In this document: positions 1 to 19,674 of the stretch, piece after piece | Layout of the letters: each line of letters starts with the position of its first letter | How positions within the stretch are numbered: position 1 is the stretch's first letter | Origin: Candidatus Hermodarchaeota archaeon | GTDB taxonomy: Archaea > Asgardarchaeota > Lokiarchaeia > Sigyniarchaeales > SOKP01 | Length of the DNA stretch: 54,933 bases | Assembly (NCBI GenBank): GCA_048885525.1 | Contig: JBHLLP010000023.1 | Coordinates: 1 to 54,933 of the forward strand | Direction: 5' to 3' | Program-made: the position numbers and the translations under genes | The notes under the pieces: generated by a model | The model's database searches: none | Told to the model about the DNA's origin: nothing | The model's input: only the letters and a program-made list of their open reading frames with translations

Positions 1-984
1 AATATCATATGGAGTATCTCCAATCCCATCATCATTAGCATCAACACCAGAATAATCACTCCAATAATTTCCAGTGGACCCGTTGTCCCATTGGTTATCT
101 GTACCATAATCAATTGCGTTTTGATTGTTATTGATAAAAGAATTATTAGTAAATATATTATTATTACTATTGTACTCCAAACGTATTCCATAATCTCCGT
201 TGTTAACTACGATGTTTCCCGAAATATTATTATTATCACCATTATACAGAAAAATTCCTCGATAGGCGTTAGCAAATACATCATTTTCTGAAACAAGATT
301 ATTAATACTATTCCATATTCCAATTCCGTCATTGATATTTTCATTTGCATTATTCCCCGTAATACCATTATTATTACTAGATTCTAAGGATAACCCCCAT
401 CCATTATATTTAAACGTATTTTCCGAGATAATATTATTATGACTATACCATAAACCAATCCCATATTCAATGTTACTGTTTGCAATATTTCCTGAAATAC
501 TGATATTTTGGGAATATTCTAAAATTATCCCTATAAAATCGTTGTTATTTGCATAATTATTGATTATTTGTCCATTATCGACATTATACAATTTAATTCC
601 CCCATCACCCCAGTCTACTCCTGAATTGTAGACAGTACAATTTTCAATCCTAAAAAATACATCAGAGTTTTCAATTATTATACAACTTCCCGAACCTCCG
701 CCATTAATTTCCAAATCTTCAATGACGTAAGGATTGGAATATGTTCCATTCCCCGTACAATTTCCCGCAACCTTAAAGGCAGCCCAACCTGAATTACCAT
801 CTATATGGATTTTACCCGATACTTTTAAGAGTTTCAGACCTTTATTATTTAAATCATCACTTACCGAGTTTTTATAAATAATTCCCATAGTAGAATTGGG
901 AGTATTGGTGATTAGTGGGGATGCAAACAAAATTATTGCAAAAATCATCAAAGTTATTAATTTAAGATTAACAAATTTTTTCAT
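1..984 (-). CDS. NosD/CASH-type right-handed beta-helix surface protein; 3' end runs off the window; absent from the ORF track
   Basis: Manual translation from ATG at 984: MKKFVNLKLITLMIFAIILFASPL (signal-like)...GNCTGNGTYSNPYVIEDLEINGGGSGSCIIIENSDVFFRIENCTVYNSG, paralogous to 16489..19668. Asn-rich repeats follow, and the NosD-type motif GNYWSDYSGVDANDDGIGDTPYDI lies at the window edge. Confidence 0.9.
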   Translation of the reverse strand, partial: MKKFVNLKLITLMIFAIILFASPLITNTPNSTMGIIYKNSVSDDLNNKGLKLLKVSGKIHIDGNSGWAAFKVAGNCTGNGTYSNPYVIEDLEINGGGSGSCIIIENSDVFFRIENCTVYNSGVDWGDGGIKLYNVDNGQIINNYANNNDFIGIILEYSQNISISGNIANSNIEYGIGLWYSHNNIISENTFKYNGWGLSLESSNNNGITGNNANENINDGIGIWNSINNLVSENDVFANAYRGIFLYNGDNNNISGNIVVNNGDYGIRLEYNSNNNIFTNNSFINNNQNAIDYGTDNQWDNGSTGNYWSDYSGVDANDDGIGDTPYDI

Positions 985-990
985 TTCATT

Positions 991-1079
991 CTCGCCAAAA
1001 TAACAAAAGTTAATGTATCACTGTTTAGTTGGTGCGTTCAAGAATAAAAATGTTTCTCCTCGATGTAGTAGTAAATTTA
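991..1079 (-). promoter_or_regulatory. Conserved upstream block of beta-helix gene (copy A)
   Basis: Ungapped 75/89 identity to 19675..19763; both blocks begin 7 nt from the respective ATG. Confidence 0.8.
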
Positions 1080-1119
1080 GGATAAATAGTGGTAAATTTA
1101 TGCTAAATAGTGGTAAATT
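1066..1119. repeat. 21-bp-period tandem repeat array A (3 units)
   Basis: TAGTRGTAAATT starts at 1066, 1087 and 1108. Confidence 0.9.
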
Positions 1120-1208
1120 GCTCAATTAGTTTTATAAATAATACTTACTTAATAACTACAGAAATGTGAAATCCACCCATTTGTAAAAGAGACAAGTTTT
1201 AAAGGAAA

Positions 1209-1763
1209 ATGGAAAAGCGTAAAAATAAGGGTTTAGGGTATTTTATTGGTGGTACAATCATTATATTAATATCGTGTGTTCTAATATTTTTGAATTTAGG
1301 AGCTAATATCAGAATTGATGAAATGTCATATTTTGGTACTCCAGCTTATTTTATTGGTGTTCTTTTAGTAGCCTATAGCATCCATTTAAGAGGAAATAAG
1401 TGGGGATGGTTAGATTTCCCTATAGCTCTTGCAATTTGTATTATTGCATTAATTCAAGTATGGGATGCCTTCTGGGATTATTTATTATATTACAGGTTGG
1501 CGTGGTTATCGGTATTTCCACTGAATTATGTGGCACTTCTAATTCTATTCATCGGTATTATTATGAAAAAAGCTGATTCTATTCAACGCCGTGATTATAA
1601 TAAAAAAATTGGTTTAGGTTTTACTATAGGAGCAATACTTTTAACTTTACCTCTAATCTTATTAGGAGCTGTTGGAGTTAATGTAATAAATCCAAATGGA
1701 GCCATATTGTTTTTCACCGTTATTGCTTGTCTTTGTATTGGAATTTACTTTTTAAAAAAGTAA
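1209..1763 (+). CDS. Orphan polytopic membrane protein (~6 TM)
   Basis: Six hydrophobic segments; internal similarity KNKGLGYFIGG / KKIGLGFTIGA; oligo-T tract downstream. Confidence 0.8.
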   Translation: MEKRKNKGLGYFIGGTIIILISCVLIFLNLGANIRIDEMSYFGTPAYFIGVLLVAYSIHLRGNKWGWLDFPIALAICIIALIQVWDAFWDYLLYYRLAWLSVFPLNYVALLILFIGIIMKKADSIQRRDYNKKIGLGFTIGAILLTLPLILLGAVGVNVINPNGAILFFTVIACLCIGIYFLKK

Positions 1764-1783
1764 AATATTTTTCTGGATTATTA

Positions 1784-1800
1784 TTTTTTTCTTTTTTTTT
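1784..1800 (+). terminator. Oligo-T archaeal-type terminator (putative)
   Basis: T7-C-T9 about 20 nt after the stop of 1209..1763. Confidence 0.5.
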
Positions 1801-1873
1801 GTAGCGTGGATGGAGATGATAAAGATTGGATAAGGCTCAAGTTTAATATTTAAGGGATTTTAGCGTAATTGGA

Positions 1874-1891
1874 GCTAAATAGTGGTAAATT
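1874..1891. repeat. Isolated copy of the repeat unit (direct repeat of 1102..1119)
   Basis: GCTAAATAGTGGTAAATT is identical at 1102-1119 and 1874-1891. Confidence 0.9.
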
Positions 1892-1951
1892 AATCAATAA
1901 TAAATATAAAAAAAATTAACTTCTGTATTTGTAAAAGTGTAGCAATTTGGA

Positions 1952-3868
1952 TTAAGGATTAAAAACCTCGTGTATAACTTCCCCGAGAGAAGGGGGATTA
2001 TTCAATTCTAACACTTCACCTGTCTGAACTGCTCTATTCAAACTTGTCCAAATTTCAGTATTATCCTTGACGGCTTTTGAGAAAATATGTAATTTCTTTA
2101 AGCCAGGGTAAGATTGTCCTTTTATTACATAACATACTAAAAATGACTCAATTGGGTTTATCAGGATTACATTTTCCCCAATTTTGATACGATCGATAGA
2201 CTCGGAAAAGACTTCGGAGCTAAATGTGTCAAACGCAGACATGAATGAGCTAAAAAGCCAATCAAAATCCCAATCTTCTCTAAATGAATAACTAAAGTAC
2301 GAAATTCCGCCCTTACTCATTATTATAAGTACAATAGGTTCTTCATCTCTTAAATCAAGTTGTTCTATAGCTCCATTACGAAGCATTCTGCCCATTTGTT
2401 CATTTATGTTCGCTAGTTTCATTCGATCATTTAAGGATATGTTTGATTCTTTAATTCCTTCCCATCTTTTCAGTTGTTTGAGTAATTCATCATGTTCGGT
2501 TGAAATTTTAACTGCAAGGCGATCAAGATGATATTTATCAGCTATATTTTGTGCTTTAGTTAAAAGTTTTCGAGCTTTTTTTAACTCAAGGGTTACTAAT
2601 GCTAGTCTTGCTTGGAACATATATACTTCAGCTAATAATGGGAATGAATGGTTTTTTTCAGCGAGGTTAAGTAATTTGATAATATAAGGTTTAATTTCAT
2701 CGATTATATCAAGATGACCTGTATTTTGTAGTTCAAATAAGAGTAAGTCGCATAGATGTAATAGTGCAATTAATGTTATTTCATAGTCTACAATTTCTTC
2801 ATCGACAACTTGTTTCAATATTTCCTCAGCTTTACCTCGATGGATAGAACGTGGACTTGTCTTCAGAAATATAGCTTTATCAACACGATAAGCCATACTA
2901 CTAAATTTCGATCTATTCTGAATTTGCTCTAATTGTTCTAAGTAATGTTGAGCTAATACAATATCACCCTCTTCAAGAGCTAAATGAAATAAACAATCTA
3001 AAGATGTCACTCCAGAAACACCTATTTCCCTAAACAATTTTACACTTTTTTCCAAAGTCTCCAGAGCAAGATTAAACCGACCTTGTTTCCGATACAAATC
3101 TCCAAGATTATTTAGAGATTGTGCAATTCCAAATTTATAATCTATTTCCTTGGCAATTGCTAAAGCTTCATTGTACTGTTCTATAGCACTATCAATCTCA
3201 CCTCTAAAAGCATAAATAATGCCAAAATGCATATAACAGTTTAGAATCTGTGCTTTGTAATCAATCTCTTTGGCATGCAATAGGCACTGATTTGAGTAGT
3301 CCAATGATATTTCAAAATCACCTAAAGTATGGTATATATTTTTCATCACGTCGAGAGACTCAACTATTCCTAACTTGAGATCAAGCTTTTTATTTAACTT
3401 TAGACATTGTTCTGCATATTCGAGAGCTTTATCAAATTCTCTCCTCATAAAATAAATATTTGCCCTACAGCAGGAAATCTCAGCTTCTCTTTTAATGCGT
3501 TCTTTCGATGTCTCAAAGTCAAGGGATTTAAGAATTTCTTCACTCTGTAAAAGTAATATGAGAGCTCTTTCATATTTGTAACCTGAAAAATAAGCCATCG
3601 ATTTTACGATGTAAGCATCAACTAATTGAAGGGAATCCTTTTGTCCCTCACTTGCATGATAAGCTTTTTCAGCGTAATCCAATAGTTTTTCTTTATCTTT
3701 CAATTTGTTAGATAAAAGACCCATTAGAATATAATAAGATATTTGTTCATAATTCGAAATATCTTTCCTTTCCCCGAAGTTTTTTAAAACTTGAGAAGCT
3801 TCATCAAATCTCCCATTTTCAATGAATTCCTTTGCATCTACTAATTCTTTTGATTCTAATTCAAACAC
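1952..3868 (-). CDS. TPR-repeat protein with C-terminal longin/roadblock-like domain
   Basis: TPR motifs (AQSLNNLGDLYRKQGRFNLALETLEKSVKL); C-terminal IVLIIMSKGGISYF...LFSSFMSAFDTFSSEVF...IDRIKIG pattern resembles longin-like domains. Confidence 0.85.
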   Translation of the reverse strand: MFELESKELVDAKEFIENGRFDEASQVLKNFGERKDISNYEQISYYILMGLLSNKLKDKEKLLDYAEKAYHASEGQKDSLQLVDAYIVKSMAYFSGYKYERALILLLQSEEILKSLDFETSKERIKREAEISCCRANIYFMRREFDKALEYAEQCLKLNKKLDLKLGIVESLDVMKNIYHTLGDFEISLDYSNQCLLHAKEIDYKAQILNCYMHFGIIYAFRGEIDSAIEQYNEALAIAKEIDYKFGIAQSLNNLGDLYRKQGRFNLALETLEKSVKLFREIGVSGVTSLDCLFHLALEEGDIVLAQHYLEQLEQIQNRSKFSSMAYRVDKAIFLKTSPRSIHRGKAEEILKQVVDEEIVDYEITLIALLHLCDLLLFELQNTGHLDIIDEIKPYIIKLLNLAEKNHSFPLLAEVYMFQARLALVTLELKKARKLLTKAQNIADKYHLDRLAVKISTEHDELLKQLKRWEGIKESNISLNDRMKLANINEQMGRMLRNGAIEQLDLRDEEPIVLIIMSKGGISYFSYSFREDWDFDWLFSSFMSAFDTFSSEVFSESIDRIKIGENVILINPIESFLVCYVIKGQSYPGLKKLHIFSKAVKDNTEIWTSLNRAVQTGEVLELNNPPSLGEVIHEVFNP

Positions 3869-3992
3869 ATTAAAATAGTAATTGAAATGTAATATATTGT
3901 AAACAATTTAAGATTATATCCTATTTAAGAGTCAGTTTTTTGTTTTACAGATTTGTTAATTCTAGGAGAGCAAGATGATTGCATTGATAAAA

Positions 3993-4162
3993 GACCAGGT
4001 TGGTCAGGTGGGGGTGTACGTGGGGAGCTTTTGGGCGATCTATTTAACCTTCTATTCTCAATCGCGCAAGTGTGTGGTGTTGAAAGGGTTTCCACAACTT
4101 GCTACCTATTTAAATCTTTACAAATTGGAAATTCGGTAATCCCATCATGTTTTTTACATGAT
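3993..4162. other. Hairpin-rich, locally GC-richer intergenic segment (candidate structured RNA)
   Basis: Stems GACCA/TGGTC (3993-4005), GCGAT/ATCGC (4035-4065), GCAAGT-g-TGTGG/CCACA-ACTTGC (4066-4102), ATCATGT/ACATGAT (4144-4162). Confidence 0.4.
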
Positions 4163-4182
4163 ATTTTTTTATAGGTCATAAG

Positions 4183-4330
4183 TACAAATGCATAATAAGG
4201 TTAAGGCTTTATTTTAAGGGTTAGATGTGATCAATTTTATTTTTTTCCCCTGCAATCTGCAATCAGATCTATCCCTAAATAATTGGCGTTATAAACCTAG
4301 AAAAACCTTAATGCTTTATTATGCATTGTA
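4183..4330. repeat. ~150-bp imperfect inverted repeat / long hairpin
   Basis: AATGCATAATAA (4187-98) pairs with TTATTATGCATT (4316-27); TTAAGG (4201-06) with CCTTAA (4306-11); AGGGTTAGATGTGAT (4217-31) with ATCAGATCTATCCCT (4262-76, 13/15). Confidence 0.75.
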
Positions 4331-4435
4331 TTCCCACCAGGGATAGTTTTTATAAACATCTTTTAACTTGAAATGATTATAATTCTTTTTTATTAAGATA
4401 ATTGAAAAAAAAATGAGTTATATATTATTTATGAT

Positions 4436-6154
4436 TTATTCTTCGCGAAGTGCTCGTTTTAATACTTTACCAACGGTAGTGAGGGGTAAAGTTTCTCTAA
4501 ATTCCCAAATTTTTGGAATTTCATATTTTGAGAGATGTTCAATGGCATAATTTTTTAAATTTTCTTTTATACTTTCGGTTGGGTCAATTCCTTCTTTTAA
4601 TTGCACAACTGCTTTTACTATTTCACTTCCAGGGCGATCTGGATCTTTAAGACCAATAATTGCTGCCATTTCTATATCTGGATGTTTTGTTAAAATATCT
4701 TCTACATGAACACTATAAACTTTATAACCACTTACTATTAGCATATCCTTAGTTCTATCTACAATTGTTATAAATCCATCCTCGTCCATGACCCCCACAT
4801 CCCCGGTATGAAACCACCCATCAATAATTGTTTTTGAATTTGCTTCAGGTTTGTTATAATATCCTCTTGTAACTTGAGGTCCCCTACAAATTATCTCTCC
4901 CGGTTTACCAAGCTCTACTTGTTCTCCTGTCTCAACATCGACAAGTCTTATTTCTGTATCTGGTACAGGTAAGCCAACAGTACCAATTTTTTTCTTACCA
5001 TAATAAGGATTCATTGTAAGAATAGGTGAGGTTTCTGTCATTCCATATACTTCTAATACTTTATTTTTTGCATTCATTGAATCTTCAAAATCGGTAATTG
5101 CTTCTGCAGGAAAAGGAGCTGCACCAGAAACATAAATTTCAATATTATCTAAAGTAGATTTAGCAATATCCTTCGCTTTAGGATTGTTTTTAATAGCCAA
5201 ATATAATGTTGGTACATTCACTATTATTTTAGGATTTTTTTCCTTTATCTCCTTTATAATATGATCTGTATCTCGAGGATTTGCTATCAAGATTTGACCT
5301 GCAGAAATATATAAAGTTAGCATACTCATTGCTAATCCCGCTAAATGGAATAGAGGAAAAGCAGACAGGTTTACATCTCCTTCTTCTGCTTCCTGATTAT
5401 CAAGCCAATTTATAACTTGAGTAATATTTGATATCAAATTAGCATGAGTAAGCTCAGTGCCTTTAGGGAGACCAGTTGTACCACCAGTATATTGAAGTAA
5501 TGCTAAATCTTTAATTACATCTATTTGTATGTCCTTTAAATCTATTTCTGTATCCATTATCTCTCGAAAATCTAATACATTCTTTCCATGAAATGGTTTA
5601 ACTTTACCTTTTGGGATTTTCCCTAATGATTTTCCAAGAAATATAATAATTTTAGAAAGCCCCATATAGTCCGATACATTTGTACTGATAACAATTTCCA
5701 ATTTTGGAACTTTATCAAGCACTTGGAATAAAACCTTTTCATAAAAAGCATCTAATGTGACAAAAAACTTTGCTTCACTGTCATTTATTTGGTATGCTAT
5801 CTCTGTTGCACTCATTAGGGGTGAACAACCCGAAGCTACTCCACCTGCCAAAAGGGTTCCAAAGTGAGCAACCAAATATTGGGGACAATTGGGTAAATTA
5901 ATAGCAACACAGTCTCCTTTCTTTAAACCGTTCTTCTGTAAATAAGTTGCAAAGCGATGCACTTTTTCTCTAAGTTCTTTAAATGACATTTCTTTTTTCA
6001 TGAAATAACACGCAATTCGTTGAGGAAATTTTGCCATTATATTATCAAACAATTTTCCTAAACTTTCCTTAGGATATTCTAAAGTTGGTTTAACATGTTT
6101 ATCGTAAGATTTTAACCAAATTTTAACATCATAAGGTGTTTGTTCAGTTTGCAT
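4436..6154 (-). CDS. fadD: Long-chain fatty-acid--CoA ligase (AMP-binding)
   Basis: YTGGTTGLPKG AMP-binding motif, YGMTE, GWFHTGDVG, C-terminal GKVLKR. Confidence 0.93.
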   Translation of the reverse strand: MQTEQTPYDVKIWLKSYDKHVKPTLEYPKESLGKLFDNIMAKFPQRIACYFMKKEMSFKELREKVHRFATYLQKNGLKKGDCVAINLPNCPQYLVAHFGTLLAGGVASGCSPLMSATEIAYQINDSEAKFFVTLDAFYEKVLFQVLDKVPKLEIVISTNVSDYMGLSKIIIFLGKSLGKIPKGKVKPFHGKNVLDFREIMDTEIDLKDIQIDVIKDLALLQYTGGTTGLPKGTELTHANLISNITQVINWLDNQEAEEGDVNLSAFPLFHLAGLAMSMLTLYISAGQILIANPRDTDHIIKEIKEKNPKIIVNVPTLYLAIKNNPKAKDIAKSTLDNIEIYVSGAAPFPAEAITDFEDSMNAKNKVLEVYGMTETSPILTMNPYYGKKKIGTVGLPVPDTEIRLVDVETGEQVELGKPGEIICRGPQVTRGYYNKPEANSKTIIDGWFHTGDVGVMDEDGFITIVDRTKDMLIVSGYKVYSVHVEDILTKHPDIEMAAIIGLKDPDRPGSEIVKAVVQLKEGIDPTESIKENLKNYAIEHLSKYEIPKIWEFRETLPLTTVGKVLKRALREE

Positions 6155-6448
6155 TTTTTTCTACCCTTTTTTTCAAAAATAGGAATTGATAAAATTTTAT
6201 CCTAATTATTAAATTTTTCATAAAAAATTGATATTGAAATATTAGAATTCGGAAATATTTAAAATTATCTTTGTAAATGAAGAAGAAGGTTATATCACTA
6301 AGAAGGCTGTGATGGAGAAAGAAAGGAGAATTTATTGAGATAAATAATTAAAAAGAAAATCTTTTTCAGTTATCAAAATCAAGCATGGAGTTGTTCCTGC
6401 TTTAAAACCAATAGAAATCCCATATCCTTTTAGCTAAGCTTCTTTTTA

Positions 6449-7237
6449 TTAATTTGAGTGATCTTTTTCCATTTCATTTTTAATAAATTCAATGTTTTCT
6501 TTAAGAGTCTGAGATATTGGCTCATCTCGCATTTTAAGGTTATCTAAGATTTGAACGGCATCTTCAAATAATTTTAAAGCTTTGGGATATTGAGATTTTT
6601 TATAATATAATCCAGGAATTTTCGAAAATTTAAAAGAGATACACTGAAATGCTGCAATTAATATCCAAGAAACAGTGAGAAAAGCTAAAATCCATTCCAG
6701 CAATGGATTTAACGTTGAAACAAATAAAATTAACACAAATCCAATTGTAAAACCAAGATATGCTAAATATCGTTTGAACGTAGGACCTTTATACATTAAT
6801 GACTGAGGGCCTTTATACATTAATATACTATACAAAACTATATAGATTGAAGTGCCAATAAAACTTACTCCTGCAACGATTCCATGAAAGGTAAAAAAAG
6901 CTACGGGATCAAAAGTCTCATTTGGGATTATTCCAACAAGACCTATACACATGTTAGAAAAGATTGCCACTCCTGTTGCGAGTTTTCCAATGTGTTCTTC
7001 AATAGCTTCTAACTCCTTTTTTAGGTAAATGTAAAAAGGGATTAATAAAGAACCAGCAACTACGAAACTGATACTGAATAATGATCTTGCATTACCTTCC
7101 CCTAATGAACTTATAGTATAATCTAATGGGTTAAAACCTGGTGTAAAAAATGCTGTTATGAGGAGGCCGACTAAAACAAATAAAGCCCCAAAAAATCCAA
7201 ACAAAACTTCCATCCTACTCTCTTTTATTGAAACCAT
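6449..7237 (-). CDS. DUF998-like membrane protein with TPR-like C-terminal tail
   Basis: PGFNPLDYTISSLG after TM1, conserved His (FHGIVA), LEWI motif; helical C-terminal YPKALKLFEDAVQI. Confidence 0.7.
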   Translation of the reverse strand: MVSIKESRMEVLFGFFGALFVLVGLLITAFFTPGFNPLDYTISSLGEGNARSLFSISFVVAGSLLIPFYIYLKKELEAIEEHIGKLATGVAIFSNMCIGLVGIIPNETFDPVAFFTFHGIVAGVSFIGTSIYIVLYSILMYKGPQSLMYKGPTFKRYLAYLGFTIGFVLILFVSTLNPLLEWILAFLTVSWILIAAFQCISFKFSKIPGLYYKKSQYPKALKLFEDAVQILDNLKMRDEPISQTLKENIEFIKNEMEKDHSN

Positions 7238-7370
7238 AATATTCCCTCTCTAAAACATTTAAAAACACTATTATTTAGTTCTCATTTGTAACTAACACAA
7301 TGAAAAGTTATTTATTAAAGTTTAGTTGATATTAATAATTAGGTGATTTATCTATTTAAAAAGTGATTTG

Positions 7371-7901
7371 ATGGGAAAATTCAAATTTAAAATTACTGTT
7401 ATTGGTGATGGATTCGTAGGTAAAACTTCCTTAATAAGTAAATTTACTCAAGGAAATTTTCAAGAGGATTATATACAAACTATAGGAGCACAATTTTCTG
7501 AACATATAGAAGATATTGAAGGTGATCGGTGTGAATTATTTTTCTGGGATATAGCAGGGCAAGCTGAATTTAACTTTTTGCGACCTGCGTTTTATAAGTC
7601 AAGTCTAGCATCAATTGTTGTATTTTCTCTTGAAGAGAATGATTTTGGTAGAAAAAGTCTTAACCATATTGAGAAATGGAATAAAGAAATTAAGAAATTT
7701 TGTGGGGATATACCCGTAATACTTTTTGGAAATAAAGTCGATTTAGTTGATGAAAGTAGCTTAAACGATGATAAAGTATCAAAATTCATAGATAAGGGCA
7801 TTTATATTGATTATTTTAGGACATCTGCAAAAACAGGCCAAAACGTTGAAAAAGCATTTAATAAAATTATCAGAGAATTGCACTCCAAGTATAAAGGTTA
7901 G
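7371..7901 (+). CDS. Ras/Rab-like small GTPase
   Basis: G1 GDGFVGKT, G2 TIG, G3 WDIAGQ, G4 NKVD, G5 SAKTG; ATG at 7371 preferred over TTG at 7368. Confidence 0.95.
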   Translation: MGKFKFKITVIGDGFVGKTSLISKFTQGNFQEDYIQTIGAQFSEHIEDIEGDRCELFFWDIAGQAEFNFLRPAFYKSSLASIVVFSLEENDFGRKSLNHIEKWNKEIKKFCGDIPVILFGNKVDLVDESSLNDDKVSKFIDKGIYIDYFRTSAKTGQNVEKAFNKIIRELHSKYKG

Positions 7902-8027
7902 AATTTCCTTATAAACCTTTAAGGAACATAAAATTTTATGACTTTAATAAACCGTCTTTTATAAGTAATATTTTTTAAAATAATAAAATAAGAAAGAAGA
8001 AATATGATTGGTAATTATTTTTTTCCT

Positions 8028-8378
8028 TTAACTATTAACTATAATCTCAAATACAACTCTAAGTATTATATAAACGATCCAAGGGATAAATGGAAGTATT
8101 AAAGCAAAAAAGACTAGCCCTAATGGTCCTATAAAAAACGTGCTCAGTGGAATCCACCACCAGGATATCCTTACTCCTGCAGTAAGATATACGGATATAA
8201 TACACCCTAATATTGCACCAATTATTAATAAATATTTAATGGGTTCTTTACGCAATAAGTACACATAATATTTTCCCGTTAATGTTTTCTTACTCCTTGC
8301 TTTTGCTCTTACATCTGAAATATATTCTTGCTCTTCAATCTCAATAACTTGTTTTTCTAAATCAAGCAATTTACCCAC
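8028..8378 (-). CDS. Small orphan membrane protein
   Basis: Charged N-terminus followed by 2-3 TM segments; shared upstream module at 8429..8477. Confidence 0.7.
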   Translation of the reverse strand: MGKLLDLEKQVIEIEEQEYISDVRAKARSKKTLTGKYYVYLLRKEPIKYLLIIGAILGCIISVYLTAGVRISWWWIPLSTFFIGPLGLVFFALILPFIPWIVYIILRVVFEIIVNS

Positions 8379-8428
8379 CTTTTCTTTTAAATTATTTTTT
8401 TAGGTTTTTTAAAAAAAATAAAGTAAAA

Positions 8429-8477
8429 ATTATATTTTTAGTTTCTCATTCAAAACTATTTTTGGACTCTTGGATTA
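8429..8477 (-). promoter_or_regulatory. Shared 49-bp upstream module, copy 1
   Basis: Minus strand TAATCCAAGAGTCCAAAAATAGTT...AAACTAAAAATATAAT; 37/49 ungapped identity to 11254..11302. Confidence 0.6.
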
Positions 8478-8560
8478 TTTAATAGACTAGAGACTTTATT
8501 CCAAAACATAACAAATTTCGCACACTGGGTTAAAATAAATAGTAGGTTTGTTTTGTAGAA

Positions 8561-8794
8561 TTGATGACATCCAATTTTATAATTAAGAGTCAGGATTCAT
8601 TTGAACCCGTGAGTGTTGTAAAATTTTATTATATGAAAGATAATAAAAAAACCATATTTGTACGACTACCAAATGGGAAAGTGATATGTGTTCCTAAAAC
8701 AACCATTCAATCCAAATTTTCAAGAGATAAAAATCGCTTACAAGACATTATTATTGATGATTGGATTCTGAGAAAATTTGGTTTGATAATGTAA
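8561..8794 (+). CDS. Small beta-rich protein homologous to the C-terminal domain of 26508..27224
   Basis: NGKVICVPKTTIQS...IIIDDWILRK aligns with NGLEVWIPKSTIHS...FHIDCWILKK. Confidence 0.75.
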   Translation: MMTSNFIIKSQDSFEPVSVVKFYYMKDNKKTIFVRLPNGKVICVPKTTIQSKFSRDKNRLQDIIIDDWILRKFGLIM

Positions 8795-8978
8795 ATAAAA
8801 TTACAATTCCACAGACAATATCAAGATCTCTATTATTTGACTCAAAAAGAGATATCCAATTAATATCACCCAAAGCTTCAATATTTCTATGGATAGTAAT
8901 TTTAAGAAAAGTTAAGAATTTCACAGAAGACCTAAAACCTTAAAACATAGGTGAGATATTTTTGAAATAGTGTTAACC

Positions 8979-10244
8979 ATGTCCGAAAAAAGGATCCATG
9001 ATGTGTGCATAATTGGTGCTGGACCGGCAGGATCAACTTGTGCCTATTACTTAACTCAAAAAGGGATGATTCCATTAGTACTTGAAAAAAAAGAATTTCC
9101 TCGAGATAAAATATGCGGGGATGCATTTCCTCTACGTGCTCAAGTTCACCTCGAGAGGATGGGAATTTTACAAAAATTAATTGATGAGAAGAAAGGACGA
9201 TGGACAGCTCAAGGGGGATTAGTTAGTCCTAGAAAAATTGTATATACGGGAGATTCATATGCGGAAACGAATTCACACTTAGTAATAGCAGTCAAAAGAA
9301 AAATTATTGATGAAATGCTGATTAAAACGGCAGTTGAAGCAGGTTCAATCCTAGTAGAGAATTATTCAGTTAAGGAAGTAAATTTTGATGAAAACAAGGA
9401 ACATTGGACTATTCATCCAAAGAATGGAAAGAAATCCCCTTATCAAGCAAAAGTTCTAATTATTGCTGATGGTGCATCTTCTCATATCGCTCAATCATTA
9501 GGAATTGTAAAAGAGTCATTCCAAACAGTGTGTAGTCGAGCTTATATAAAGGCCGGAACTTATAAATTTGACCAAGATGGAATAGTTGTTATAACAATGG
9601 AACTTGTGCCAGGTTACTGTGCTCTCATGAAAGAAGCAGATGATGATCTCGTCTTTTGTTGCTATCTTATTCCTTTTGGAAAAACTCGTACTCAAAATTT
9701 GTATAAATTGCATCATGATTTAATTGAGAATGATCCCTTCATAAGTGAAGCTTTAGGTCCTAATGCTGAAATTGGAGAAATGAAAGCAGCACCCATACGT
9801 TTTGGTGGAATACCACAAAGTTATGATAATCACTTGCTAATTGTAGGGGATGCGGCAGGAATGATAGATCCTCTAACTGGAGAAGGATTACAATATGCAA
9901 TGGATGCTGCTGAAATTGCCGCTACTACAATTGTCGAAGCTTTTCAAAAAAATAACTTTACAAAAAAATTTTTTAAACGATATCAGGGAAGATGGATGAA
10001 AAGTTTTGGGAAAGACTTTAAGTGGTCTATTCGCATGGCTCGTTTCTGTGCAAAGCATCCAATCTTTTTTGATGCTTTCGCTTCCCTCAGTCAAAAAAAA
10101 GGAGATAAATTCATGGTCGAATGGGGAAAAATCATGACAGGTTCAAAGAAGAAACTAAATTTCTTCCTTCCTAAACTTGCTTTTCCTTTAATTTTTGAAA
10201 CGCTGAGATTAAAACGCAAGTTCAAGAAAGAGAAGATAAATTAG
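8979..10244 (+). CDS. Geranylgeranyl reductase family FAD-dependent oxidoreductase
   Basis: IIGAGPAGS, FPRDKICGD, ADGASS, VGDAAGMIDPLTGEG; ATG at 8979 preferred. Confidence 0.92.
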   Translation: MSEKRIHDVCIIGAGPAGSTCAYYLTQKGMIPLVLEKKEFPRDKICGDAFPLRAQVHLERMGILQKLIDEKKGRWTAQGGLVSPRKIVYTGDSYAETNSHLVIAVKRKIIDEMLIKTAVEAGSILVENYSVKEVNFDENKEHWTIHPKNGKKSPYQAKVLIIADGASSHIAQSLGIVKESFQTVCSRAYIKAGTYKFDQDGIVVITMELVPGYCALMKEADDDLVFCCYLIPFGKTRTQNLYKLHHDLIENDPFISEALGPNAEIGEMKAAPIRFGGIPQSYDNHLLIVGDAAGMIDPLTGEGLQYAMDAAEIAATTIVEAFQKNNFTKKFFKRYQGRWMKSFGKDFKWSIRMARFCAKHPIFFDAFASLSQKKGDKFMVEWGKIMTGSKKKLNFFLPKLAFPLIFETLRLKRKFKKEKIN

Positions 10245-10260
10245 TTTAAGCTAATTAAAC

Positions 10261-11151
10261 TTATTCTGTTAATTTTTCTTTAATCTGCTCAACAAGCTTT
10301 TCTGCTTCTTTGGAGTCATAGATAAATTCAATTTCCTCTGATGATGATATTCCAATTCCTAGTTCTACAGCTCTTTTAATTTGTTCTTGTTCAAAAATTG
10401 GACCTTTTGATACTTCTGGAGTTGTCCCTAGTATACGTAATATCGCAACTCCAACAACATCTACAGCTACCTTATCAGTTCCGGCAACAAACACATTTGC
10501 TTCTTTTCGAGTACCTTCCATAGGTCCACGATCTACAAAACTAATAATACCATCCATAATAATTAAGTCAGGTTTGTATACAGAATTTATTTCTGCAATC
10601 ATTTTCCTTTGATGTTTTGAAGAATGTAACTCTCCCATGTTGCTCTTAGATACCATTCCTACGGCATTTTTTAGTGATAAGGTAAAGTGACCACCATACA
10701 TATGAGTCTTTAAACAACAAGTTTCAACAATACATTCAGCATTATCATATATCTTTGCAAATAGGAATCCATCTTTCCAATGATTATCTTCGGGATTTTT
10801 AAGGATGTATTCTTCTTTGGGTACCTCGGTCAAATCAACAATATTAAAATCTAATTCCTCTGCTAATGCATACAATCCTTTTTTTTTAAAGGTTTTAGCA
10901 GTATTTGCTGGACCACTTCGTTCAGCAACTGTAATTGATTCTGCACCCATTTCTTTTAATTTGATAATAAGTTGCTTTACGGTTTCCATTGAACTTGAAG
11001 CAGGAGGAGGATCTGCAGTATTGAAATTAGGTTTAAAAATCACATGCTTATCTTTAACAGGATTAATTTCTAATAATTCTAAAGCCTTATTTACGCCATA
11101 AACGCGATCTGATGTAGAAATAATAACAATTTTAGTCATATTATTCACCAT
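10261..11151 (-). CDS. DUF362 domain protein
   Basis: VIFKPNF, LKTH..GHFTLSLKNAVG, IIMDG, DKVAVD motifs. Confidence 0.85.
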   Translation of the reverse strand: MVNNMTKIVIISTSDRVYGVNKALELLEINPVKDKHVIFKPNFNTADPPPASSSMETVKQLIIKLKEMGAESITVAERSGPANTAKTFKKKGLYALAEELDFNIVDLTEVPKEEYILKNPEDNHWKDGFLFAKIYDNAECIVETCCLKTHMYGGHFTLSLKNAVGMVSKSNMGELHSSKHQRKMIAEINSVYKPDLIIMDGIISFVDRGPMEGTRKEANVFVAGTDKVAVDVVGVAILRILGTTPEVSKGPIFEQEQIKRAVELGIGISSSEEIEFIYDSKEAEKLVEQIKEKLTE

Positions 11152-11253
11152 TCGATACGTATTAAACTAGACCTATCAAATTAAAATTTGGGATTATAAA
11201 AATTAAGCTATAATATGAGAGTTTATCTTTTAATAAGTGGTATAGTCTGATAG

Positions 11254-11302
11254 TTATCCAAAAGTCCAATAAAAGTTCCGGACATAAAACCAAAAATATA
11301 AT
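11254..11302 (+). promoter_or_regulatory. Shared 49-bp upstream module, copy 2
   Basis: TTATCCAAAAGTCCAATAAAAGTT...AAACCAAAAATATAAT, continuing CCTAAAC.AATTA as in copy 3. Confidence 0.65.
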
Positions 11303-11340
11303 CCTAAACTAATTATTTTTAAACACTTAAAGGTGATTTT

Positions 11341-11958
11341 ATGAAAGAATATTATGATCAAGTAAAGAATATGGATGTGATAGAAATGGACGTTGAGGAA
11401 CTCACCGTTGAAAAAATAGGAGATTTAGAACAAAAGGAAACTTCAGATTCTTTTAAAGAATTTGTGGCTGAATATCCTAAATTTGTTGGAGGATTAGTTT
11501 CGATAATTGGAGTCTTAATTGGAATAGGAATATTAATGTCAAATAATAGAATTGAACTTCTACTAGGCATTAATATAATTTTCATTACAATTGCCATCAT
11601 TGGAGAGATAGTTGTGAAAAGTAGAGAATCAAAAAGTAGAATACAATATAAAGTTCCAACTTATGGTATTGTTGCTTTAGTTTTTGATATTCTTGCATTG
11701 ATAGTGATAGTAGGTGTTGATGTAAACGGATTAATGTCATTCTCCATTTGGAACAATCTTTATGCAGCCCCCTTAGTCTTTGTAGCAATAGGCAGTGCTT
11801 TAGCAGGATTTTATTATGAACATGATTCTAGACCAGGTTTAGCTGTTTTAGGGCTTTTCCTTGGCTGTATCCTATTATTGATAAGCTTTTGGCAAGTTCT
11901 ATTAGTGATTCTCATTATAATTGGAATTATTGCGTATATCGCTAATGGTGGAAATTAA
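11341..11958 (+). CDS. Orphan membrane protein (~5-6 TM)
   Basis: Acidic N-terminus, hydrophobic segments, AGGTGA RBS-like sequence upstream. Confidence 0.8.
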   Translation: MKEYYDQVKNMDVIEMDVEELTVEKIGDLEQKETSDSFKEFVAEYPKFVGGLVSIIGVLIGIGILMSNNRIELLLGINIIFITIAIIGEIVVKSRESKSRIQYKVPTYGIVALVFDILALIVIVGVDVNGLMSFSIWNNLYAAPLVFVAIGSALAGFYYEHDSRPGLAVLGLFLGCILLLISFWQVLLVILIIIGIIAYIANGGN

Positions 11959-11965
11959 TCTTATA

Positions 11966-11996
11966 TTTTTTTTCTTTTTTTTTGCTTATTTTTTTT
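11966..11996 (+). terminator. Oligo-T terminator (putative)
   Basis: Three T-runs immediately after the stop of 11341..11958. Confidence 0.5.
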
Positions 11997-12177
11997 CCAT
12001 TTAAATATGCGTAAGAAGAGCTTGAAATTGAATCGATTGAAATAAAAGACGATAAAAATCAAAAGAAAGATTAAATATGGAAAAGACATAATAAATCATT
12101 GAAAAGAAATCTCGAGAAAATATTAAAAAAATCAATTTTTTAATTAAAATCAATTATAGTAGAAGAGAAATACAAGA

Positions 12178-12561
12178 ATGAAAGATTTAACTGTTATTTT
12201 GAAAAATAAACCAGGAACCTTAGCTGATATGGGTGAAACTTTAGGAAAAAATGGCATTAATATGGAAGGATTATGCGCATTTCCTCAAAAAGGTGAAGGT
12301 GTCGTTCACATTTTAGTTGAAGATGAGACTACAACTCAATGGGCACTCGAAGATGCAGGTTTTGAAGTACGGGCTATACGTGATGTACTTGTTATAAATA
12401 TTAACCGTGATGTAGGAAAACCCGGTACAGGAGGTAAGATCGCTCGTAAAATAGGAAATGCTGGAGTTAATATTGATTTAATCTATTTAGCTGAGAATAA
12501 TAGATTGGTAATTGGAGTTGACGACTTGGATAAAGCTCGAACAGCTTTAGGGATAGAATGA
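12178..12561 (+). CDS. Tandem ACT-domain protein
   Basis: NKPGTLADMGETLGKNGINME and GKPGTGGKIARKIGNAGVNID. Confidence 0.9.
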   Translation: MKDLTVILKNKPGTLADMGETLGKNGINMEGLCAFPQKGEGVVHILVEDETTTQWALEDAGFEVRAIRDVLVININRDVGKPGTGGKIARKIGNAGVNIDLIYLAENNRLVIGVDDLDKARTALGIE

Positions 12562-12642
12562 AGATATCTGTTAATCTGGAGAATAATTCTTTTAAAATCA
12601 AATTTAATAGGAATAATTAGAAGATCATATATTCTAATGAGT

Positions 12643-13140
12643 TTAAGACTCCAAATATGGAAGTCTTTTTATCTTCATTGAAGTTCTCGTAGCTTTGATT
12701 AATTTTTGAAATTCAGATCCAGGAATTTGCAAAGTTTCAGTGTTTATATTTGGATGACAACATAGCTCTTTTGCATTCCAAATACTTTCATCTACGATGA
12801 ATATTACCTTATTATTAATATCATTAACTAACCCAATTGGAGAAACGGCACCAGCAGTGATACCTAATATACCAGAAAGTTCTTCCAGCGCAGCAAAGCG
12901 AATTTTTGGAGCATTTATCATTTTCCGGAATTGATTTATATCCAAGCGTTTTTCATGAGGAATAGTGACTAAATATAGTTGCCCCGTTTTTTTATTTTTA
13001 AGAAACAAATTTTTACAATGAGTTCCTGGAATGTGACCACAATGCTCCTTCGCTTCAGGAACAGTGAACACTGCGGGATGTGTGTGCAGGATATATTGTA
13101 TATCATTTTCCTGCAACCACTGCTTTAATGAATCTTCCAT
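12643..13140 (-). CDS. YbaK/ProX (PrdX)-type aminoacyl-tRNA editing protein
   Basis: HPAVFTV, CKNLFLKNKK, LGITAGAVSPIGL, HPNINTET. Confidence 0.9.
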   Translation of the reverse strand: MEDSLKQWLQENDIQYILHTHPAVFTVPEAKEHCGHIPGTHCKNLFLKNKKTGQLYLVTIPHEKRLDINQFRKMINAPKIRFAALEELSGILGITAGAVSPIGLVNDINNKVIFIVDESIWNAKELCCHPNINTETLQIPGSEFQKLIKATRTSMKIKRLPYLES

Positions 13141-13221
13141 ATTTATTCATTTAATTAAAAAGTTATTTACATTATAAATTTTTAAAAAAATCATAAAGAT
13201 AGTTTTTTCTAAAATAACTCT

Positions 13222-14208
13222 TTATTTTTGGAATTCTTTAGGGATATGTACAGCAAATTTACATACTAAACCTCCAGTAAGAGGAGTTTCGATTGGTTCT
13301 ACTAAAGTTGGTTGATCAAAAATTATATCCCAATATAGTTTGATATACCCTGCACTACACTGGCAGAAGTTAGGAGAAATTTCTTTTTCAGTACCGTTTT
13401 TGAGTGCTCCTCGTACCCAAGGACAGTAACAACTATAAAACCGTTTTAATCTCTCATTTTCCGCGTTAAGATGCTTCTTTATTTGATAAGGCATTTTCGT
13501 TTCTATTATTTTATCTCCTTCTCTTTTTCCAGGAGTTATTGTAGGATCATTTTTTATAAATTTGATTACATCTTCATTTATATATTGAGCAAATTCTAAA
13601 GTTCCCTCTTTTTGATGTTTTTGAAGACGTTCAATTATCTCTTGCTTTTTAATTTCTAAAAATTCATCAATATCATTTAAACTTAAGAAATGTTCTCTAT
13701 CTTTTTTAATATTCCCAGGACGACCATGTAAACAAGGTTTCAATAGTTCAATTGTTTTCGTTTCCCCTAATGTTTTTTCTAATCTTTTAATAATTTCTTT
13801 AGTGAATTCTGGCTTTTTTTTAGGATGAACTCCTAGAGCAGGAATGTTGATATTTTTAAAAATTTCATCTCGTATTTCTTCACCATATTTTTCTTCAATT
13901 CTTAGGTAAAGATTATCCATAGCATTATATGATTCTGAGATATCGATAATCTCAACGATATAATCATAGTTCTTTATAAAATATCCATAATTGATTAAGG
14001 CTCTTAATAATTCTAATACAGTCTCACTTTTGTTTTCTACTAAATATTCTGTATAACTAATAATTCCACCTTTAGGAATCGAATTAACATCATTATTCTC
14101 TTTTTTAAGATAATTATTATATTCATTTAATCTTGAAATAAGAATCTCTGCTTGTTCTTTATCAACATTTTTCTCTAGAAGATATTCCAAGAAAGCTTTT
14201 TCATTCAA
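13222..14208 (-). CDS. DUF6144/V4R-like Cys-rich protein with helical N-terminal domain
   Basis: CYCPWV, FCQCSAGYIKLYW, ETPLTGGLVCKFAVHI. Confidence 0.65.
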   Translation of the reverse strand: MNEKAFLEYLLEKNVDKEQAEILISRLNEYNNYLKKENNDVNSIPKGGIISYTEYLVENKSETVLELLRALINYGYFIKNYDYIVEIIDISESYNAMDNLYLRIEEKYGEEIRDEIFKNINIPALGVHPKKKPEFTKEIIKRLEKTLGETKTIELLKPCLHGRPGNIKKDREHFLSLNDIDEFLEIKKQEIIERLQKHQKEGTLEFAQYINEDVIKFIKNDPTITPGKREGDKIIETKMPYQIKKHLNAENERLKRFYSCYCPWVRGALKNGTEKEISPNFCQCSAGYIKLYWDIIFDQPTLVEPIETPLTGGLVCKFAVHIPKEFQK

Positions 14209-14378
14209 TATATATCACATTTCATTTTTGATGATATGAGAAGACACATTTAATGATATAATTTAAGTTATTTTATCCTCTCCAGATATAGTAGGAATAT
14301 TAAGTCTTCAAAAATGATGAAGCTTAATATGAGAGGGAAACGTCTTATTTAGCAATAAAACTCCCTAAAGTCTAAAAA

Positions 14379-14427
14379 CAATCCAAAAATTCATTCATAG
14401 TCATACACTAAAAACTAAATATATAAT
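14379..14427 (+). promoter_or_regulatory. Shared 49-bp upstream module, copy 3
   Basis: CAATCCAAAAATTCATTCATAGTC...AAACTAAATATATAAT aligns without gaps to copies 1 and 2. Confidence 0.6.
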
Positions 14428-14471
14428 CCTAAACAAATTACAATAAAACTAAAAAAGGTGGTTTTACAAAA

Positions 14472-14909
14472 TTGAGTGATGAGTTAGAAACCATTATTAT
14501 CATAGCTTTCATATTAGGTGCTGCTTCAATAGTTTACATAGCCATTTATATTTCCTTAATGTTCGTGATCTTATTACTAGTAATATCTCCAATAGCAATT
14601 TTAGGATATAATACAAAAAAGAAAAAAAGAAAATGCCCTTATTGTGTTATCTATATGAAACGTATAAAAGAAAAGGAGAAGGTAGTATATCATTGTTTTA
14701 AATGCCATAAAAAGTTTAAAGATAGATATGATAAACCAAAAAAGAAAATTGGAACCCAAAACTACATGAATTTAAACTGGTTAAGGCAGCAATATTACGA
14801 TTTGGGGAGGACCCTTCAAGATATTGCCGATGAACAGAAAGTAAGTATAATGACCATTAAAAAATGGGTGGATAAAATAGACAATGCCACCTATGATAAA
14901 GAGGATTAG
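14472..14909 (+). CDS. Membrane-anchored Zn-ribbon + HTH protein
   Basis: N-terminal TMs, CPYC...CFKC, C-terminal WLRQQYYDLGRTLQDIADEQKVSIMTIKKWV HTH. Confidence 0.75.
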   Translation: MSDELETIIIIAFILGAASIVYIAIYISLMFVILLLVISPIAILGYNTKKKKRKCPYCVIYMKRIKEKEKVVYHCFKCHKKFKDRYDKPKKKIGTQNYMNLNWLRQQYYDLGRTLQDIADEQKVSIMTIKKWVDKIDNATYDKED

Positions 14910-16399
14910 ATTTTAAGTGTTTTTAAATACTCTGGTGGTTGACGTACTTTTGATGCTTGCTCGTAGGCATACGCTAATTTAAGAAGGATTGACTCTTGAA
15001 ATTGACCCCCTATAAATGAAATACCAACTGGAAGTCCAAAAACATAACCCGCAGGAACTGTTATATTTGAATAACCTGCGACAGCAGCAGGTGACGAACT
15101 TCCGCCTGAGGAATGGTCTCCATTGATTAAATCTATAAACCATGCTGGACCTCCGCTAGGAGCAACTATTGCATTAAGTTGGTTTTCTTGGAGAATCTTA
15201 TCAATACCTTCATCTCGAGAAAGTCTTTGGCACTTCTCTAAAGCAGATTTATATTCTTCACTGGAGAGAGGTCCCTTTTCTTCTGCCATTTTAAAAATCT
15301 CTTGTCCAAAATAAGGCATAATTAGATCTTTGTTTTTATCATTGTATTGGATTAAGTCGCTTAAAGATTGAGGGAAATCTTCTGGAACATACTTTTTCAG
15401 AAATTCATTCATATCGTGTTTGAAGTCATAGAGAAGGACTTCGTATTCAGGATCTTGTAGTTCATTTACTGATGTTATATCTGTAGGGTCTATAATCGTA
15501 GCACCTAACAATTCCATTTTATCAATAGCTTTTTCTATAACTTGATCCACATATTCGTTTTTACCAAAAAAGTTACGAGCAACCCCAATTCTAGCATCGT
15601 GTAACCCGTTGGGATCTATGAATTCCCTATAATCAAAAGGGATCTCATTATTAATCTTTATCGAACTTGGATCTTTTGGATCGGCACCTACTATGACACT
15701 TAATAACATAGCTACATCCTCAACAGTTCTTGCCATTGGTCCTGCAGTATCTTGATTATGTGATATTGGAATTATTCCTGTTCGACTTACCAAACCAATT
15801 GAGGGTTTTATTCCTACTATTGAATTTGTATGGGATGGACAAATTATAGAACCATCAGTTTCGGTACCAATTGCTCCTACACATAGATTTGCTGCTACAG
15901 CTACAGCTGAACCAGAACTGGAACCACATGGATTACGATCAAGTACATAGGGATTTAAAGTTTGGCCTCCACGACTACTCCAACCACTAGTGGATCGCGT
16001 GGATCGGAAATTAGCCCATTCACTAAGGTTTGTCTTACCTAAGATTATTGCTCCTGCATTCCTTAATTGATGAATAATAAAGGCATCATGAGTAGCATGA
16101 AAATCTTTAAGAGCTAACGATCCTGCTGTAGTCATCATTTTATCTGCTGTACATATATTATCTTTAACTAGGACGGGAACACCATGTAATGGTCCACGTA
16201 TTGTTTTATTCTTCCTTTCATCATCAAGGAGTTGTGCGATTTGTAATGCATCAGGGTTAATTTCAATTATTGAATTAATTTTTGGACCTGCTTTATCAAT
16301 TTTATTAATTCTTTTTAAATAACTTTTGGTAAGTTGTTTTGCAGTAAGTTTCCCTCCTTCCATTAATGTCTGAATTTCAGCAATGGTATATTCTTTCAT
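14906..16399 (-). CDS. Amidase (amidase-signature family)
   Basis: LHGVPVLVKDN, GKTNLSEWAN, CGSSSGSAVAVAA, IGTETDGSIICP. Confidence 0.95.
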   Translation of the reverse strand: MKEYTIAEIQTLMEGGKLTAKQLTKSYLKRINKIDKAGPKINSIIEINPDALQIAQLLDDERKNKTIRGPLHGVPVLVKDNICTADKMMTTAGSLALKDFHATHDAFIIHQLRNAGAIILGKTNLSEWANFRSTRSTSGWSSRGGQTLNPYVLDRNPCGSSSGSAVAVAANLCVGAIGTETDGSIICPSHTNSIVGIKPSIGLVSRTGIIPISHNQDTAGPMARTVEDVAMLLSVIVGADPKDPSSIKINNEIPFDYREFIDPNGLHDARIGVARNFFGKNEYVDQVIEKAIDKMELLGATIIDPTDITSVNELQDPEYEVLLYDFKHDMNEFLKKYVPEDFPQSLSDLIQYNDKNKDLIMPYFGQEIFKMAEEKGPLSSEEYKSALEKCQRLSRDEGIDKILQENQLNAIVAPSGGPAWFIDLINGDHSSGGSSSPAAVAGYSNITVPAGYVFGLPVGISFIGGQFQESILLKLAYAYEQASKVRQPPEYLKTLKI

Positions 16400-16488
16400 T
16401 TATAATCCTCTATTTTTTATATATAATAAATGAAAAAAGGTTGTTAAAAAATAAATAATTAATATTTTATTGACCCTAAGGAATTCAT

Positions 16489-19400: not shown

Positions 19401-19668
19401 CTATCACATAAGGATCGGTATAAGTACCTGATCCATTACATATTCCTGCAATCTTAGTATCAGTCCAATTATTATCAATATGAATTTTTTCTGACAATGC
19501 TGCGATTTTTAAATTACTCTTTTCTGAAGTAAAATCATTGCAATAACCCAAATTTTCATTGCTATTTCCTGTAATAAGTATGAGATTAGATGTAATTATA
19601 GGTAAGAAAGCGAAAATGATTCCTATAATTATTAATACTATTATTCTAATTTCTCTAAAATTTCTCAT
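16489..19668 (-). CDS. Single-pass surface protein: beta-helix ectodomain, TM, acidic repeat linker, 7 WD40 repeats
   Basis: N-terminal hydrophobic segment; many NN.I..N...GI repeats; TM LPIIIGVVLVIVSIMIIAVLLTV followed by basic RSRSSK; Glu-rich repeats; seven GH...SGS.DKTIK.W repeats. Confidence 0.93.
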   Translation of the reverse strand: MRNFREIRIIVLIIIGIIFAFLPIITSNLILITGNSNENLGYCNDFTSEKSNLKIAALSEKIHIDNNWTDTKIAGICNGSGTYTDPYVIEDLIIDGGGTGSCILIENSNEYFKIENCTTYNSGISIFAGIQLYNVSNSQLLNNNCTDNRADGIRIDYCNNNTISGNYISECDSPNVRYSIHIRYSENNTIIGNTINNFDSGILLQNSDNNIIQANNASNTLGGVNLRYSNENNVSGNIVANNDDGITLQFSNNNYISDNTAEYSTFSGFQIDDDSNHNIILLNTLKNNGLNGIILVSGNNNNVSKNTLSSNNENGIFLWNGVDNIISENTITYNSENGIRLSNDDSNLILENIVEYNRRGIHLTNDNTNNNISGNRVRYNSITGIYIQDSYNNYILENIVNHNYGDGIFIISSNNNLISGNDVNFNSIDGISLQNSYNNDLLQNTANDNNQWGISFDNSNYNNVVDNIVTLNDLGGIYLVDSRSNFISENYINNNVMNGLKLLKSDSNTISLNIISNTYRGIYLEFCVFNSIMTNTFTNNEYGIYLYKGHSNQVSNNAFIGNMEDIVDLQESEGGGGINLPIIIGVVLVIVSIMIIAVLLTVRSRSSKPRGFSVEKKIILQEKEKKPEIDLGLIIPSETAKGEVLKEEEVIPSEEISMEEEIVEEEVVIPKEEIPLEEKVIEEEGLITQEEIPIEEEVIEEEAAIIPEEISMEEEVIEEEVVIPIEEMPLEEKVIEEEAIIAPEEISEEGEGLEEVLAKVSDISEPIVFIKTLEGHLMGVTSVAITPDMKFIVSGSKDRTIKIWDSFTGKLIRTISGHDKYITSLTVSRDGKYIISGSNDKTVKVWELLTGKLIHTLKGHNFYVLSVAISPDGNYAVSSSFDKDIKIWDLTKGELLKTLKGHTKEVGSVAISPDNKFIVSGSNDKTIKIWELKTGDNVRTILGNKKYINSVVFSSDGKYIISGSNDKSIKVWEMLTGNLVRTFKGHTLYVISVSVSPDDSYVVSGSFDKNIKVWDLKTGNLISTLNGHKKEVGSVVISRDNKYIISGSNDKTIKIWKYA
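17425..17730 (-). repeat. Intragenic 54-bp (18-aa) acidic tandem repeats with 162-bp higher-order period
   Basis: EEEIVEEEVVIPKEEIPL-like units (about 6); TTTTCCTCGAGGGG at 17471 and 17633. Confidence 0.85.
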
Positions 19669-19674
19669 ATTATG

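Follow-up and report, generated by a model that had tools for sequence, protein, structure and literature searches.

Near the left end of the analysed stretch of archaeal DNA (54,933 bp in full, hereafter the window), a plus-strand ORF at 1209..1763 is bracketed by both copies of an exact 18-bp direct repeat, GCTAAATAGTGGTAAATT (1102-1119 and 1874-1891), whose starts lie 772 bp apart. This arrangement raises the question of whether the repeat is a site at which small genes are captured, or a regulatory element whose array was split by an insertion. The repeats themselves, reported in a first-pass annotation of the DNA, were confirmed base for base when 700-2300 and 19500-20300 were re-read. 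The annotation had further proposed an integron-like or antigenic-variation-like system of gene capture. If that were so, Asgard-type archaea would possess a new system for shuffling genes, linked to their surface proteins. What was found points instead to something more modest but useful, namely a phased promoter module that is portable and belongs to a genus of uncultured archaea.

The 18-mer is present in only these two copies in the whole 3.58-Mb genome. When up to three mismatches were allowed, seven matches were found in the window against 0.21 expected, and seven was reached in none of 100 shuffles. The 14-mer core AAATAGTGGTAAAT has six exact copies genome-wide, every one in the window: at 1084 and 1105 in the left array of locus A (A-left), at 1877 in a solo unit, and at 19768, 19789 and 19810 in array B. 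Meanwhile, Tandem Repeats Finder reported a period of 21 at 1066-1119 (2.6 copies) and at 19750-19824 (3.6 copies). A-left (1066..1119, + strand) carries three boxes at 21-bp spacing, namely TAGTAGTAAAT at 1066-1076 and TAGTGGTAAAT at 1087-1097 and 1108-1118. The first copy of the direct repeat lies within this array, and the second copy is the solo unit (1874..1891, + strand) with its box at 1880-1890. Each unit is laid out as 6-bp inverted AT arms around an asymmetric 8-bp core, AGTGGTAA. Because a GC before TAAATAG was found in both copies of GCTAAATAGTGGTAAATT and in none of the other 44 of the 46 units compared, the two are regarded as sister copies. NN-TCAAT does follow both copies, as had been annotated, but this supposed signature is largely the ordinary spacer consensus (..ATCA..) that is found after every box. 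The TCAAT does not discriminate between the possible origins of the repeat.

Both arrays belong to longer modules. At locus A, a conserved block of 81 nt (the left flank, LF; 985..1065, - strand) runs from the start codon of a beta-helix gene to the first box and presumably represents the core promoter and 5' leader of that gene; a TATA-like AATAAAAA is located in it on the + strand at about 1041-1053. The gene (1..984, - strand) is the 5' part, cut by the contig start, of a NosD/right-handed beta-helix gene with a signal peptide (Pfam NosD, 1.3e-31, plus Beta_helix), which is whole and 555 aa long in the sister assembly GCA_048886605.1 (L083:4109-5776). Module B (19669..19873, + strand) consists of an LF (19669-19749), four boxes (19750-19824) and a tail (19825-19873) without interruption. 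It is positioned between a beta-helix-TM-WD40 gene to its left (16489..19668, - strand; NosD/beta-helix with WD40 repeats and a signal peptide) and a polytopic membrane-protein gene to its right (19982..20665, + strand), which is unrelated to the ORF at 1209..1763. The beta-helix genes 1..984 and 16489..19668 are paralogous and 43% identical at the N-terminus. A third module, Z, was found in the sister assembly (L083, about 3847-4045). It belongs to a 680-aa beta-helix gene, comprises an 81-nt LF, three boxes and an AT-rich tail, likewise uninterrupted, and extends to where the 555-aa beta-helix gene has its 3' end.

In Z and B the order is thus LF, array and tail with no break, whereas module A reads LF, three boxes, 754 unrelated bp, one box and tail. 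The likeness of the flanks of A to those of B, noted in the first-pass annotation, was substantiated on both sides: 988-1119 matches 19672-19803 at 86% (E 6e-38), and the solo copy with its tail (1876-1936) matches 19809-19873 at 83% over 65 bp by BLAST (E 2e-12). The tail of module A (1892..1936, + strand) is the AT-rich right flank common to modules B and Z, and its local alignment score against the B and Z tails was unmatched in 2000 shuffles; it now lies stranded, 15 bp from the stop of a convergent TPR gene. The stretch after the left array (1120-1208) resembled a tail no better than random AT-rich upstream regions of the same genome did (P 0.58-0.95), no trace of an LF was detected in 1764-1873 before the solo unit (P 0.8-0.98), and a search for decayed extra units next to both repeat copies gave nothing significant. 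Because Z and B are uninterrupted, the right-hand tail of A is homologous to theirs, and neither 1120-1208 nor 1764-1873 resembles a tail or an LF, module A must be split: on this comparison, it is a Z/B-type module interrupted by 754 unrelated bp. Removing 772 bp restores an LF, three boxes and a tail, and so leaves a B-like locus as had been predicted. Locus B also stands as the uninterrupted paralogous site; it is not an empty site in the sense of having no neighbour, as an unrelated polytopic membrane gene follows its tail.

Two side observations concern the same sequences. A longer repeat, made up of decayed units or a second tail at the left array, was considered and dropped as not significant, leaving a marginal register-locked likeness (P about 0.02). 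On contig C8 of this genome (about 44902-45045, - strand; L089, about 3400-3550), an orphan copy of the module with an LF and four degenerate boxes is 80-83% identical to A and B, and no start codon or beta-helix gene lies behind it.

The interrupting segment (1120..1873, + strand; 754 bp) looks like a complete transcription unit, to judge by its parts: an AT-rich TATA-like stretch (1127-1189), the ORF at 1209..1763, and an oligo-T tract (1781-1801) as a likely terminator. The ORF encodes 184 aa with six hydrophobic stretches by eye (6TM) and belongs to an orphan family, since no family above noise was returned by Pfam, NCBIfam or the Atlas. It has 12 metagenomic homologues at 41-55% identity, and further homologues in 4 of the 53 other genomes of the genus, none of them array-bearing; the 6TM ORF is therefore a member of a real gene family. 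No box was detected within 1.5 kb of the homologues in these four other species. The segment is single-copy in the genome and shows no significant likeness to the LF, the tail or the unit. Neither terminal inverted repeats nor a strong inverted repeat was found at its ends, foreign composition was not seen (its GC content matches the surroundings), and no known RNA family was found in 800-2100 or in four related loci. The start of the 6TM gene lies 90 nt from the boxes. When GCA_048886605.1 is compared with the window, the oligo-T tract differs in length by one base, and the sole coding difference in the 6TM gene is at 1432.

To the right, outside the module, lies the convergent TPR gene (1952..3868, - strand; 638 aa; Pfam TPR_12 and TPR_MalT). 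Its orthologues in five genomes of the genus (G061, G054, G007, G010 and G057) are 68-74% identical, and their loci have other neighbours on both sides and no boxes. As the gene order around the TPR gene has not been kept even by the closest species, filled and empty sites are not scorable across species. The TPR proteins also vary in length, with 638 aa here, 641 aa in G061, 788 aa in G010 and 954-956 aa in G054, G007 and G057, whose orthologues are 68-70% identical; in comparison with L068, L079 and L081, the protein described here lacks about 310 aa that extend the C-terminus.

The genus was then surveyed in 54 genomes, both with module B as a BLAST query and with a pattern of two boxes. 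The module is present in 9 of them, this one included, usually in one to three copies. Of 46 units (17 arrays, 9 genomes), 39-46 carry the conserved letter at each position of the box TAGTGGTAAAT, and the spacers, with the consensus T(T/G)ATCATAAA, are less conserved than the box. Six of nine modules measured across species (A, B, Z, G010b, G059 and G006a) have exactly 81 nt between start codon and first box; G010a has 82 nt and G006b 79 nt. Identity amounts to 79-98% in the arrays and 70-84% in the LF, compared with 58-68% over the 300 coding nt with which the homologous beta-helix genes begin. The module stands on either side of beta-helix genes, as in G008, where the boxes are 71-83 nt upstream of plus-strand beta-helix genes. 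It also precedes unrelated genes, i.e. a 486-aa gene (G010a) and a 191-aa membrane protein (G002). In the former case (L058:1914-2040; G010:C134, - strand), a full 82-nt LF and three perfect boxes stand before the 486-aa gene, whose product has the N-terminus MSEEKVLLIFPPSNW. Since this gene is unrelated, the promoter module is considered portable.

Several further box-like sequences were noticed during the survey. Degenerate 21-bp-phased T(A/G)(G/C)TGGTAAA boxes occur in the genome studied here upstream of an 891-aa secreted SBP_bac_5 protein (C17:21741-21793, L087) and of a 251-aa membrane protein (C11:47840-47892, L088), with similar pairs in G010, G017 and G020; they may belong to a wider regulon of the same putative factor. 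The G006a module is followed by a broken ORF. In the right flanks of G059 (L059:1715-1800), G009 (L060:942-1020) and G010 (L058:6296-6380), a shared ATCAT-TT-AAAT-type motif comes after the last box and is itself followed by a strikingly GC-rich stretch, against 29% GC in the genome described here. This stretch may be a structured RNA or another array-driven element; it has no Rfam match.

A conserved asymmetric box, phasing over two helical turns, a fixed distance to a TATA-like element, and conservation above that of coding DNA together indicate an array of transcription-factor sites. The host genome (29% GC) is archaeal, with several TBP genes, hence TATA-type promoters apply. We infer from these features that a factor binds the boxes and that the LF acts as a promoter; the position of the array upstream of the TATA element makes an activator site the more likely role. 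Comparable arrays are known elsewhere. PhoB 'pho boxes' repeat about every 22 bp in the pst and ugp promoters of E. coli, Ss-LrpB boxes are regularly spaced in Sulfolobus, and Ptr2 binds upstream activating sites in Methanocaldococcus. The arrays described here share with such phased operators and upstream activating sites an asymmetric conserved box, two to four repeats, spacing by integral helical turns (21 bp), a location immediately before a TATA-like element with the distance to the start codon fixed, and conservation exceeding that of neighbouring coding DNA. They differ in that the factor is only putative and the host archaeon has many eukaryote-like genes, and in that the module is portable between unrelated genes, works on either side, and is in one copy split by a gene.

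The state of the site was compared among the available assemblies. Over window 1-7762, GCA_048886605.1 (L083) has 99.85% identity, and it continues for another 4.8 kb to the left, where it carries the second beta-helix gene (680 aa) with module Z; its module B and the four units therein are identical to those of the window. Both junctions of the segment are identical in this assembly and in three Logan contigs from three runs (99.1-99.9% identity). The site is thus filled in four of four other spanning assemblies, with the same single gene in all five. Exact-protein look-ups for the neighbouring genes gave a match in GCA_048886605.1 alone. The arrangement is fixed in the available assemblies, and the event looks old. 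A third assembly, GCA_048938225.1, has a contig (JBHLMK010000019.1, L091; 53,058 bp) that is exactly 1876..54933 of the window. It starts at the first base of the solo unit and, on the right, ends where the window contig and GCA_048886605.1 end. Nowhere else in the genome does a sequence share more than 18 nt with the spot at 1876. The left end could reflect a graph branch, that is, a structural variant in that sample whose sequence to the left differs; more prosaically, coverage could have dropped in the AT-rich spacer.

Could the unit nevertheless be an attachment site, at which a recombinase encoded elsewhere inserts and excises small gene cassettes beside surface-protein promoters? An exact 18-bp direct repeat does flank a complete one-gene unit, the inverted AT arms around an asymmetric 8-bp core are a layout also of recombinase core sites, the junctions could by their sequence be attL/attR hybrids, the contig of the third assembly stops exactly at a unit, and the 6TM homologues are patchy (4 of 53 other genomes, none array-bearing). 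We nevertheless consider this very unlikely. The search for filled sites, empty sites and cargo that the first-pass annotation had suggested yielded no second bracketed gene in the 54 genomes of the genus, so that the capture system it envisaged would have a sole instance, with a single-copy insert, all spanning assemblies filled and the one tyrosine recombinase of the genome unlinked. Two other array-gene-array cases (G002:C19 and G008:C71) proved to be separate promoter modules with diverged arrays, each before its own gene. No solo intergenic box was found around ten other arrays, and of the 13 exact 14-mers that stand isolated in relatives, 12 fall within long ORFs. A pattern scan for the terminal unit in metagenomes gave one match, inside the coding region of an unrelated contig, which was discarded as a chance match. 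Nor was a tyrosine recombinase linked to the motif: a whole-genome scan for this family (PF00589) returned one on contig C54 (presumably XerA), none in the segment, none on the contig of the window and none near any module. Besides, the unit count of array B is the same in the sister assembly, and regulation explains both the conservation of the boxes and their fixed 81-nt spacing. Judged by what the annotation itself had said would speak against capture, these results indicate a one-off rearrangement. The likeness to known mobile systems is similarly partial. As in integrons (IntI, attI, attC), a single small gene, bounded by repeats, lies beside a strong conserved promoter region; unlike them, the locus has no intI beside it, an attC-type imperfect palindrome is missing, what bounds the gene is a promoter element repeated in direct orientation, the putative cassette apparently brings its own TATA-like stretch and oligo-T tract, and there is one cassette with no variation among five assemblies. 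An exact repeat (18/18) around inserted DNA also recalls the attL/attR-bounded elements of archaea (SSV-type, pNOB8-type), but here the insert is of 754 bp and single-copy, with no integrase and no tRNA-gene target, and no excised or empty form exists among the four other spanning assemblies. A short intergenic insertion with flanking direct repeats is likewise typical of IS elements and MITEs; such an origin, IS200/605-type elements included, was rejected as there are neither terminal inverted repeats nor further copies, and moreover an 18-bp duplication exceeds the usual target-site duplications and the segment carries an ordinary conserved membrane-protein gene. In contrast to invertible or shuffling antigenic-variation loci such as vsa/vrs of Mycoplasma, the copies at locus A are direct rather than inverted, no recombinase is nearby, and the arrangement is the same in all assemblies. 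There remains a slim chance that the unit with its AGTGGTAA core doubles as the core site of a recombinase encoded elsewhere, which moves complete one-gene units into surface-protein promoter arrays in this lineage; the contig would then stop at the unit because the population was a mixture, with some sites filled as here and others filled differently. It is mainly this contig end at 1876, along with the recombinase-like layout of the unit, that keeps an active capture site from being given a still lower probability.

There may also have been no insertion at all, if the left array were a complete beta-helix module that natively drives the 6TM gene, and the solo unit with its tail were the remnant of another, largely deleted module or an independent single-box site. 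Tandem beta-helix paralogues with their own modules do exist here (Z and A) and in G008 and G002, as do orphan or decayed modules (C8 here, and G006a beside a broken ORF). An ungapped register-locked likeness of 1127-1150 to the tail is marginal (15/24, P about 0.02), and two places 748 bp from each other have the 11-mer ATTTGTAAAAG in common. This explanation has a better chance than an attachment site but is still unlikely, because 1120-1208 is not above random AT-rich upstream regions in its likeness to any tail (P 0.58-0.95), an LF remnant is absent before the solo unit (P 0.8-0.98), the GC unique to both copies among 46 units argues for sister copies rather than independent modules, and a remnant would require one more deletion, with its end placed precisely at the border of a unit. 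That the split is an assembly artefact, i.e. a chimeric join at a short repeat, can practically be dismissed. Contigs of this population do break in or at arrays; the junctions, however, are base for base the same in the window, GCA_048886605.1 and three independently built Logan contigs, and the 18-bp repeat is shorter than the usual assembly k-mers.

The explanation that we favour, and hold to be probable, is that of a putative transcription-factor box array forming a portable promoter module, into which a foreign membrane-protein gene was inserted once; the event would be old and by now fixed, and the gene would sit at regulatory distance from the boxes. The 21-bp units would be phased binding boxes (core TAGTGGTAAAT, two helical turns apart) for a putative transcription factor, and the conserved promoter module would consist of the 81-nt LF, with TATA element and leader, followed by two to four boxes. 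In a sub-clade of the genus, this module would drive secreted beta-helix (NosD-like) genes and a few others. In the present species, the module and a species-specific AT-rich tail were probably copied along with beta-helix paralogues, giving Z, A and B. Later, in the order of events that we reconstruct, the 754-bp self-contained transcription unit would have entered module A once, between the last box and the rest. As for the mechanism, the 18-bp repeat may stem from neighbouring, already identical units of a B-like four-unit array, the segment having entered the spacer that separated them, with no duplication needed; or the third unit of a Z-like array may have been duplicated by Campbell-type or site-specific recombination through the unit, the incoming DNA itself bringing a unit. 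Neither origin requires an ongoing system. A likely consequence is that the 6TM gene came to lie 90 nt from the boxes while one box and the tail were left stranded. As this distance is close to the 71-83 nt of the box-adjacent beta-helix genes of G008, the 6TM gene may be co-regulated through the boxes. Some points count against the favoured explanation. Under a mechanism independent of the repeat, landing exactly between or at the units of an 85-bp array is a coincidence; the arms-and-core layout of the box is shared with recombinase core sites; and the contig end of GCA_048938225.1 could mean a structural variant in that sample.

As natural examples of portable promoter modules with phased boxes go, the locus is a clean one, and one copy of the module has apparently acquired a foreign membrane-protein gene that lies within regulatory distance. 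Because module A is split, the insertion can be dated after the duplications of the paralogues. The defined box (TAGTGGTAAAT, 21-bp spacing, 81-nt leader) could be used for finding the regulator and its regulon, and the split module A offers a ready test case of whether the boxes act in both directions.
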